Below, in pieces: positions 46,691 through 46,977 of a DNA stretch of 64,000 nucleotides. Within the stretch, counting starts at the first letter, position 1. Every line of letters begins with the position of its first letter. The notes under the pieces are model-generated. The model saw only the letters and a list, made by a program, of their open reading frames with translations. It searched no databases and was not told the origin of the DNA. The translations under genes were made by a program, and so were the position numbers. The stretch is from Escherichia coli (GTDB lineage: Bacteria > Pseudomonadota > Gammaproteobacteria > Enterobacterales > Enterobacteriaceae), in the NCBI RefSeq assembly GCF_003018255.1, contig NZ_CP027440.1; one strand, written 5' to 3'.

Positions 46691-46977
46691 TTGGCGGATG
46701 CGGCGTGAACGCCTTATCCGCCCTACATGTGCAATCCCGAAGGCCAGATAAGACGCGGCAAGCGTCGCATCCGGCAATTGCACCGCGCCACTGGCGGATG
46801 CGGCGTGAACGCCTTATCCGCCCTACATGTGCAATCCCGAAGGCCAGATAAGACGCGGCAAGCGTCGCATCCGGCAATTGCACCGCGCCACTGGCGGATG
46901 CGGCGTGAACGCCTTATCCGCCCTACATGTGCAATCCCGTAGGCCGGATAAGACGCGGCAAGCGTCGCATCCGGCAT
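46691..46977. repeat. BIME: about 2.9 tandem copies of a 100-bp unit built from REP palindromes
   Basis: Unit starting TGGCGGATGCGGCGTGAACGCCTTATCCGCCCTACATGTGCAATCCCGAAGGCCAGATAAGACGCGGCAAGCGTCGCATCCGGCA... recurs with exact period 100 at 46693, 46793 and 46893. Confidence 0.8.

Follow-up and report, generated by a model that had tools for sequence, protein, structure and literature searches.

The locus analysed here lies in a stretch of 64,000 nucleotides of Escherichia coli DNA (contig NZ_CP027440.1), which is referred to below as the window. The eut operon occupies its minus strand, from eutS at 54531 down to eutR at 39401, and comprises 17 genes in about 15 kb. The only large gap in this operon separates eutG (46978..48165, minus strand, stop codon TAA at 46978-46980) from eutH (45435..46661, minus strand, start codon ATG at 46659-46661); the second-largest intergenic gap is 106 nt, and most of the others are shorter than 12 nt or are overlaps. 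Given the strand of the operon, eutG is upstream and eutH downstream of the array of repeats found in this gap. The gene identities are those of the RefSeq annotation of NZ_AP045067.1, which is 100% identical to the window over the 716 bases compared, mapped onto the window and combined with its list of open reading frames (ORFs). RefSeq has no gene annotated in the spacer of NZ_AP045067.1, and the feature table of K-12 (NC_000913.3) holds no REP or repeat entry at the eutG-eutH spacer.

The spacer is 316 nt long and consists of 285 nt of array and 31 nt that carry the eutH ribosome-binding site. Tandem Repeats Finder reports the array (46692-46976) as a single tandem repeat with period 100, 2.8 copies (2.85 units of 100 bp, with three copies in register), 98% matches, 0% indels and a score of 556, and the periodicity on which the first-pass annotation had staked its description is thus present. 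That annotation had proposed three tandem units with an exact period of 100 and a slightly diverged third copy, and this was borne out. The copies start at 46692, 46792 and 46892 in a repeat search of the window, with a spacing of exactly 100, and units 1 and 2 are 100% identical. Unit 3 is partial (~85 nt), stops at the eutG stop codon and differs from the other two at two bases inside the array (T for A at 46940 and G for A at 46946). The starts proposed earlier (46693, 46793 and 46893) have the correct period and lie one base off the register of the tools, the phase of such a repeat being arbitrary. Two exact copies of 100 nt exclude a chance origin of the array. Additionally, the window contains 9 sites of the REP tail motif CTTATCNGGCCTAC vs 0.71 expected, and 9 sites were reached in 0 of 100 shuffles; six of the nine sites are in the array, and one other is in a solitary Z2 REP at 25281-25316.

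Because transcription runs along the minus strand, the mRNA order is eutG, six hairpins, then eutH, and the hairpins are therefore inside the eut polycistronic message. In the mRNA sense the eutG TAA is followed by 2 nt and then by three blocks, each made of a Z2 unit of 37 nt, a 12-nt linker and a Y unit of 34 nt, with 17-nt linkers between the blocks. All of these parts are on the minus strand, while the array as a whole (three Z2-Y REP pairs of the BIME-2 kind) is given without a strand. The first block holds Z2-a (46939..46975), a Z2-type REP hairpin that retains its GTAG/CTAC tetranucleotide, folds at -22.8 kcal/mol and is identical to the Z2 of REP325 at ~34 of 37 positions, then tail-to-tail linker a (46927..46938), which reads GGGATTGCACAT in the mRNA sense, and Y-a (46893..46926), a Y-type REP hairpin with a 5' GTAG in the mRNA sense, a fold of -19.5 kcal/mol and 31 of 34 positions identical to the Y of REP325. 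Head-to-head linker a (46876..46892, AGTGGCGCGGTGCAATT) comes next and occupies the place of the 'l' linker of REP325 (nomenclature of PMC4550694). The second block is formed by Z2-b (46839..46875), tail-to-tail linker b (46827..46838) and the Y-type hairpin Y-b (46793..46826), and head-to-head linker b (46776..46792) joins it to the third, which consists of Z2-c (46739..46775), tail-to-tail linker c (46727..46738) and Y-c (46693..46726), the Y-type hairpin nearest to eutH. Compared with unit 3, Z2-b is substituted at 46840 and 46846; its tetranucleotide is mutated (CTTC in the mRNA sense, GAAG on the plus strand) and its stem has one G-U pair. Z2-c is identical to Z2-b, including the mutated tetranucleotide, and thus GAAG replaces the conserved GTAG of the plus strand in two of the three Z2 units, together with one stem change. 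Since both units share the same mutations, the latest duplication copied a unit that was already mutated. The last hairpin ends 31 nt ahead of the eutH start codon, and the unique eutH leader that fills this distance (46662..46692, minus strand) has a Shine-Dalgarno GGGAG at 46670-46674 and is identical across every E. coli allele read.

Each unit had been described as containing two REP-like palindromes, and both are present, giving six imperfect palindromes whose RNA folds are at -19.5 kcal/mol for Y and between -20.6 and -22.8 kcal/mol for Z2. The RNA of the whole spacer folds at -166 kcal/mol, with z = -5.96 relative to shuffles. In this whole-spacer fold adjacent Z2 and Y units may also pair together. 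A scan for sigma-70-like promoters found none within the array. Matches to an intrinsic terminator (hairpin plus U run) were absent from the array as well, the only two being within eutH at 46626-46644, and neither WATCAANNNNTTR nor WATCAR was found as an IHF motif on either strand of the array.

Among the known systems closest to this array is REP325, the model BIME-2 array in the yjdM-yjdN spacer of K-12 and the source of naRNA1-6 (PMC4550694). The two arrays have in common the Y and Z2 units (about 91-92% identical), their orientation relative to transcription, the exact period of 100 bp and a place between co-transcribed genes. They differ in that REP325 has six units against three in the eut array and linkers of 17 and 13 nt against 12 and 17 nt, with unrelated linker sequences. 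The experimental evidence concerns REP325. Rfam family RF02564 (naRNA4), whose covariance model was built on the Y-linker-Z2 unit of REP325, gives two minus-strand matches of 75.5 bits each, above the gathering score of 59.5. These naRNA4-like segments are at 46842..46923 (Y-a, linker and Z2-b) and 46742..46823 (Y-b, linker and Z2-c). The plus strand scores no more than 50 bits, and both terminal half units stay below the threshold with 37.7 and 35.2 bits.

Judged by its sequence, the array is a BIME-2, that is, a group of tandem REPs from the family that is spread over the whole E. coli genome. The earlier description as a REP-derived BIME can thus be made more exact. BIME-2 elements were defined by Ton-Hoang et al. 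as z2 and y REPs in inverse orientation, and the number of units at a given locus differs between strains (PMC3333891). Every defining feature that can be checked on the sequence is present. The palindromic units are of the Y and Z2 types, as seen in the REP325 identities and the naRNA4 score, and they alternate in inverted orientation, the mRNA strand reading head to CTAC in Z2 and GTAG to head in Y, three times each. Several copies stand in tandem at one locus, with short linkers of 12 and 17 nt that have no IHF site of the BIME-1 kind. The array is wholly extragenic, between eutG and eutH inside an operon, and belongs to a dispersed family, as indicated by the further Z2 REP elsewhere in the window and by a median of 8 matching places per E. 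coli genome for a query of 716 nt. Finally, the number of units varies among strains (1, 2, 3 or 5 in E. coli and ~4.5 to 6 in other Escherichia clades). The array differs from BIME-2 in nothing essential; two of its three Z2 units have lost GTAG. BIME-1 (RIP/RIB) elements resemble it in having REP pairs in inverted orientation, but they are single-copy pairs of Y and Z1 with a long linker that holds an IHF site. This assignment was rejected because the array is tandem, has the Z2-type loop and lacks an IHF motif.

The same units can be compared with the substrates of a transposase. REPIN/RAYT systems consist of inverted REP doublets in which a 5' GTAG and a mismatch make the REPs substrates of a Y1 transposase, and the RAYT (TnpA-REP) requires both the GTAG 5' of the stem and the mismatch in the stem (PMC3333891). 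All three Y units of the array keep the GTAG and the internal mismatch, while GTAG is found in one of the three Z2 units and GAAG in the other two. No transposase gene is involved at the eutG-eutH locus. As the latest duplication copied a Z2 without GTAG, plain recombination or slippage would have been sufficient for it.

To compare alleles we searched 5,426 complete E. coli genomes three times and took the span of the spacer in each genome record as its length. Rows were sampled evenly down the whole ranking (n = 39, 60 and 60, about 159 in total, with the samples overlapping slightly). BLAST coverage and identity were not used for allele calling, because overlapping pieces let a genome with two units cover a query with three and these values are therefore blind to the allele. 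The most frequent state is two units (216 nt; 16/39, 25/60 and 20/60, or 61/159 = 38%), which is found in K-12, Nissle, ST131 and ABU83972, followed by one unit (115-116 nt; 12/39, 19/60 and 24/60, or 55/159 = 35%), as in O26:H11. Three units (315-316 nt; 3/39, 4/60 and 5/60, or 12/159 = 7.5%, including E. coli B) have a share of about 6% when the genome matching the window, which tops each sample, is left out. Five units (515-516 nt), including those of strain 042, make up the same 12/159 = 7.5% (3/39, 5/60 and 4/60), and a decayed single unit of 99 nt, the O157:H7 type, accounts for 11/159 = 7% (3/39, 4/60 and 4/60). The remaining rows have an unrelated spacer of 169 nt with a different repeat (2/39, 2/60 and 2/60, or 6/159 = 4%) or a spacer split by IS30 (0/39, 1/60 and 1/60, or 2/159 = about 1%, both rows being one genome). 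No allele with four units was drawn among the ~159 sampled E. coli genomes. Second places within a record made up 9 of 5,420 places, which indicates that interrupted spacers or arrays of more than about 7 units are very rare. An Rfam search with the element that some strains have in place of the array gave only matches at the level of chance. The variation in copy number between strains that the first-pass annotation had expected is thus found, with a decayed unit and a replaced spacer in addition to the whole-unit alleles.

Reading the sequences confirmed that the alleles differ by whole units. The five alleles with three units that were read (the window, E. coli B, CFSAN051542, PF9285 and DCE7) show four combinations of unit variants, with the first two units in common between PF9285 and CFSAN051542. 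As the alleles are built from different variants, the state of three units must have arisen more than once. That of E. coli B equals the K-12 allele with its second unit duplicated, while the allele of the window looks like an ABU83972-type allele of two units in which the second unit was mutated and then duplicated. All sampled O157:H7 genomes have the 99-nt form, except 493/89, which has the spacer split by IS30. Given that known strains of one lineage share their state, changes in unit number are recurrent but slow compared with the divergence of strains.

Other species were each represented by one genome, and a DNA-pattern scan of these with the first 15 eutH codons as its key returned 33 loci. 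The length of the spacer at each locus was taken as the distance between the stop of eutG and the start of eutH. A spacer of 27-32 nt with only a ribosome-binding site is found in Pluralibacter, Yokenella and five Citrobacter of the amalonaticus group. Salmonella enterica diarizonae has 67 nt with a single REP, in the position and orientation of the first Z2 and 2 nt past the stop codon, and C. sedlakii has 60 nt with a single REP. The C. freundii group, C. koseri and Pseudocitrobacter have 119-123 nt with one REP pair in the opposite (head-to-head) arrangement, and Klebsiella species have 194-216 nt with REPs of the Klebsiella type. Other Escherichia clades carry 1 unit (E. whittamii), 3, about 4.5 or about 5.5 to 6 units. 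On the sequences compared, the spacer is a recurrent home for the REP family of whichever genome hosts it, and the array is not specific to eut. The empty spacers and the genus-specific REPs point to the genome-wide dynamics of REPs as its origin rather than to a regulator evolved for eut, and the several genera that have the operon with a spacer of 27-32 nt indicate that the array is not needed.

We used an alignment of 33 distinct Z2-linker-Y units from 16 Escherichia alleles to see how the hairpins have been maintained. Standard pairing was found in 98.1% of the cells, vs 31-49% when the partners were slid by 1-3 columns. Two pairs have compensatory changes, from A-U to G-C in Z2 and, throughout the units of one clade, from C-G to U-A in Y, and these probably correspond to two events. 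Pairing has thus been kept, but this is weak as independent proof because the structure was derived from the same sequences, which are 96% identical to each other. Among E. coli alleles there is hardly any variation in the Y unit and the head-to-head linker, and most of it is in Z2, in the stem mismatch and the tetranucleotide. Nearly all E. coli alleles read retain the Y units and the Z2 proximal to eutG. In all Escherichia alleles read, and likewise in Salmonella diarizonae, a REP head stands 2 nt past the eutG stop; most alleles have it intact, and the O157-type allele and two Escherichia clades have it in truncated form.

At malE-malF and at other sites inside operons, REP hairpins likewise lie between neighbouring genes. 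The REP at malE-malF acts as a stabiliser that shields the upstream message from 3' exonucleases and results in unequal expression (see PMC12306157). In K-12 eut, by contrast, the downstream Eut proteins are not depleted. On ethanolamine and B12, with EutQ set to 100, the downstream proteins EutB, EutC and EutL are at 37, 24 and 39, and the upstream proteins EutE, EutD and EutG at 27, 10 and 7 (PMC11334477). The downstream proteins are at least as abundant as several upstream ones, and the two units of K-12 are therefore not a strong terminator.

REP325 is the BIME-2 array that has been dissected by experiment. When it is deleted at the native locus, yjdN, the downstream gene, goes up 8-10 fold and yjdM, the upstream one, goes down about 3-fold (Harris et al., bioRxiv 10.64898/2026.03.23.713779). 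In the same work the transcripts end as a ladder within the array, the attenuation is partly Rho-dependent and this only with the full array, and tandem gene pairs separated by REPs have upstream-biased expression genome-wide, with a wide spread, while no general effect of REPs on mRNA half-life was seen. A stabilising or partly terminating action on the mRNA, which the first-pass annotation had suggested, would agree with these results. The array at eut is a BIME-2 that gains and loses whole units and whose hairpins are part of the eut mRNA, where it would most likely serve as a barrier to decay and a leaky attenuator, and we consider this reading as a whole very probable. Unequal recombination or slippage between the direct repeats is the most likely cause of the changes in unit number, possibly assisted by a REP-associated transposase. 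By analogy with REP325, the hairpins would stop 3'-to-5' exonucleases and thereby preserve the upstream part of the message, from eutS to eutG, and the array would attenuate transcription in a leaky, partly Rho-dependent manner, lowering what enters eutH-A-B-C-L-K-R. The first hairpin, 2 nt past the eutG stop, may also reduce the translation of EutG, and the DNA of the array may be a preferred site of gyrase. Any of these effects would be modest and dispensable.

One alternative is that of a selfish cluster of REP doublets, similar to REPINs, which sits in a permissive gap, changes size by recombination and has no selectable effect on eut. The pattern across species favors such neutrality, as the spacer is empty in several genera and filled with another REP family in others, and within E. 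coli the range from 1 to 5 units, together with the decayed unit, the replacement repeat and the IS30 insertion, points the same way, as does the abundance of the downstream Eut proteins in K-12 (PMC11334477). However, six stable hairpins would hardly leave an mRNA physically unaffected, REP325 alters the transcripts of its neighbours 3- to 10-fold at its native locus (bioRxiv 10.64898/2026.03.23.713779), and the retention of the Y units and the eutG-proximal Z2 also speaks against it, so that we regard full neutrality as possible though not probable. A translational brake would place the effect at the first hairpin, where ribosomes stalling just past the eutG stop would lead to cleavage of the mRNA, ribosome rescue and less EutG. 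The 2-nt distance was read directly from the sequence and recurs in all the Escherichia alleles read and in Salmonella diarizonae, and REPs less than 16 nt from a stop codon are reported to make the upstream gene less translated (Liang et al. 2015, summarised in PMC12306157). In K-12, EutG is one of the Eut enzymes with the lowest abundance (PMC11334477), which fits such a brake without showing one, as low EutG has many other possible causes. The brake would also leave the repetition of the units unexplained, and we think it rather doubtful as the main role of the array.

A role at the level of DNA would be independent of the RNA, the array being either a strong gyrase site that relieves the positive supercoils of the 15-kb operon or an element of chromosome organisation. 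Gyrase cleavage sites are significantly over-represented in BIME-2 elements, mainly in their Y units, of which the array has three, and the signal rises when transcription is blocked (PMC6379681). The cleavage is found in only a subset of BIME-2 arrays, though, and eutG/eutH did not turn up in two supplementary files of that study (PMC6379681), which makes this role unlikely in our estimation. It is very improbable that the naRNA4-like units are cut from the eut transcript and, as small nucleoid-associated RNAs, condense the chromosome together with HU. The two segments above the RF02564 gathering score are on the transcribed strand, in keeping with the original proposal for REP325 (PMC4550694), but RF02564 in effect models any Y-Z2 pair, the array lacks its own promoter, and the eut operon is not expressed unless ethanolamine and B12 are present. 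In the 2026 re-examination, moreover, neither deletion nor overexpression of REP325/naRNA4 changed the volume of the nucleoid, and contacts between REPs were absent. Finally, there is next to no chance that the repeats encode proteins or are an artefact of assembly. Several ORFs of 31-148 codons span the array, and one of them starts at an ATG right after the eutG stop; the near-identical spurious ORFs noted in the first-pass annotation do occur, on both strands. Against a coding function, the ORF at this ATG has 12, 29, 66 or 84 codons depending on the allele, since the 100-bp period is not divisible by 3, and the spacer has no RefSeq gene. An artefact is ruled out by the identical array in an independent complete genome and by the alleles with three units in E. 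coli B and other strains.

The number of units might in addition be a heritable, lineage-specific dial that sets how much transcription from the main promoter reaches the permease gene eutH, the lyase genes eutABC, the shell genes eutLK and the last gene, eutR. In Salmonella, genetics has shown that read-through from the main eut promoter supplies the activator eutR, which constitutes a positive feedback. Were such a dial to exist, which we hold to be improbable, 1, 2, 3 and 5 units would give different induction thresholds and different ratios of enzyme to shell, for example in O157, K-12, B and 042-type strains.

Much of this is already known, namely the kind of element, its presence at the K-12 locus with two units and the copy-number polymorphism of BIME-2 elements in general. 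We found no paper in the searchable literature that discusses the REP locus between eutG and eutH. Descriptions of BIME-2 arrays, of their hairpins and of their varying number of copies go back decades, and the array matters little in itself. Its natural alleles with 1, 2, 3 and 5 units, together with the empty spacers of other genera, do provide a ready series in which to follow how attenuation and mRNA protection scale with the number of REPs, and this series sits in an inducible operon of 17 genes whose protein ratios matter for the building of a microcompartment. For annotation the array is best masked, which avoids taking the REP ORFs as genes and the naRNA4 matches as small-RNA genes.

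The eut array (window 46692-46976) shares its period, exactly 100 bp, with REP325, the model BIME-2 array of K-12 in the yjdM-yjdN spacer (L044:2243-2899), but the unit is composed differently in each. The REP325 unit is built as Z2 36 + 17 + Y 34 + 13 nt and the eut unit as Z2 37 + 12 + Y 34 + 17 nt, with linkers that are unrelated in sequence and differ in length. If BIME-2 arrays as a family share this period, it may reflect a constraint such as gyrase wrapping or helical phasing. Within the unit, variation is spread unevenly. An alignment of 33 distinct units, taken from 16 Escherichia alleles (alignment A1), shows hardly any change within E. 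coli in Y and in the head-to-head linker of 17 nt, whereas the Z2 unit takes most of the substitutions, at the stem mismatch, in the loop and in the CTAC/GTAG tetranucleotide. Constraint on Y and mutation bias are both candidate causes of this asymmetry.

The Z2 unit nearest the eutG stop codon is cut to its initial 6-13 nt in two clades of Escherichia and in one genome of Pseudocitrobacter (L016, L035 and L017), and this remnant of the head abuts ACATGTAGGG directly, which looks like a deletion running from the Z2 head to the end of the tail-to-tail linker. As a result of the truncation, the arrays of these lineages begin with a Y hairpin. O157:H7-type genomes hold one decayed unit in a 99-nt spacer (L004:1201-1299), with 17 nt missing from the 5' arm and loop of the Z2 hairpin and point changes in Z2 and Y alike. 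The loss and the point changes together destroy the first hairpin after eutG in this lineage. The O157:H7 strain 493/89 (NZ_CP038412.1) carries an IS30 element (L043:2659-3810) in the eutG-eutH interval. The element adjoins or sits inside the 5' end of eutH, which is annotated there at 1197 nt as compared with 1227 nt, that is 30 nt shorter. This insertion probably has a polar effect on the genes in the operon's downstream half.

About 4% of the E. coli genomes sampled have a eutG-eutH spacer without the BIME-2. In these the array is replaced by an unrelated GC-rich element in a spacer of 169 nt (for example L006:1201-1369 of NZ_CM183924.1), which had no match in an Rfam search and may be similar to the 'boxC'-type repeats. 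A 145-nt query spanning the element had matches in 4,802 genomes, with a median of 6 places in each. Other genomes match over only 60-75% of its length with 85-88% identity, and at least 80% of the query is present in 382 genomes.

On the transcribed strand the eutG stop codon is followed directly by an ATG (TAAATG), which in the window opens an ORF of 84 codons through the array (46723-46977, minus strand). Depending on the allele this ORF has 12, 29, 66 or 84 codons, and with a length that differs in this way it almost certainly does not represent a gene. Any ribosomes re-initiating at TAAATG would nevertheless unwind the hairpins nearest eutG.

One record outside E. coli by name, DXKH01000140.1 (L018) from the 'Citrobacter sp.' MAG HRGM_Genome_0066, has the E. 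coli 1-unit allele as an identical eutG-eutH spacer and a EutG C-terminus 98% identical to that of the window. The contig probably comes from E. coli and was put into a Citrobacter genome by binning.

Elsewhere in the eut operon of the window, eutA and eutB are separated by only 11 nt (44024-44034), thus the operon is uninterrupted. The annotation of K-12 MG1655 (L001) places a cryptic prophage, CPZ-55, directly downstream of eutA. The window also holds a solitary Z2-type REP (25281-25316, plus strand) identical in sequence to the Z2 unit of REP325 and flanked by minus-strand ORFs at 24346-25257 and 25391-26488. The Rfam scan placed a cluster of two tRNA genes at 4821-5008 (minus strand) and one of four at 7707-8101 (plus strand), at distances from the eut operon that presumably correspond to those of alaX-alaW and valU-valX-valY-lysV on the K-12 map.
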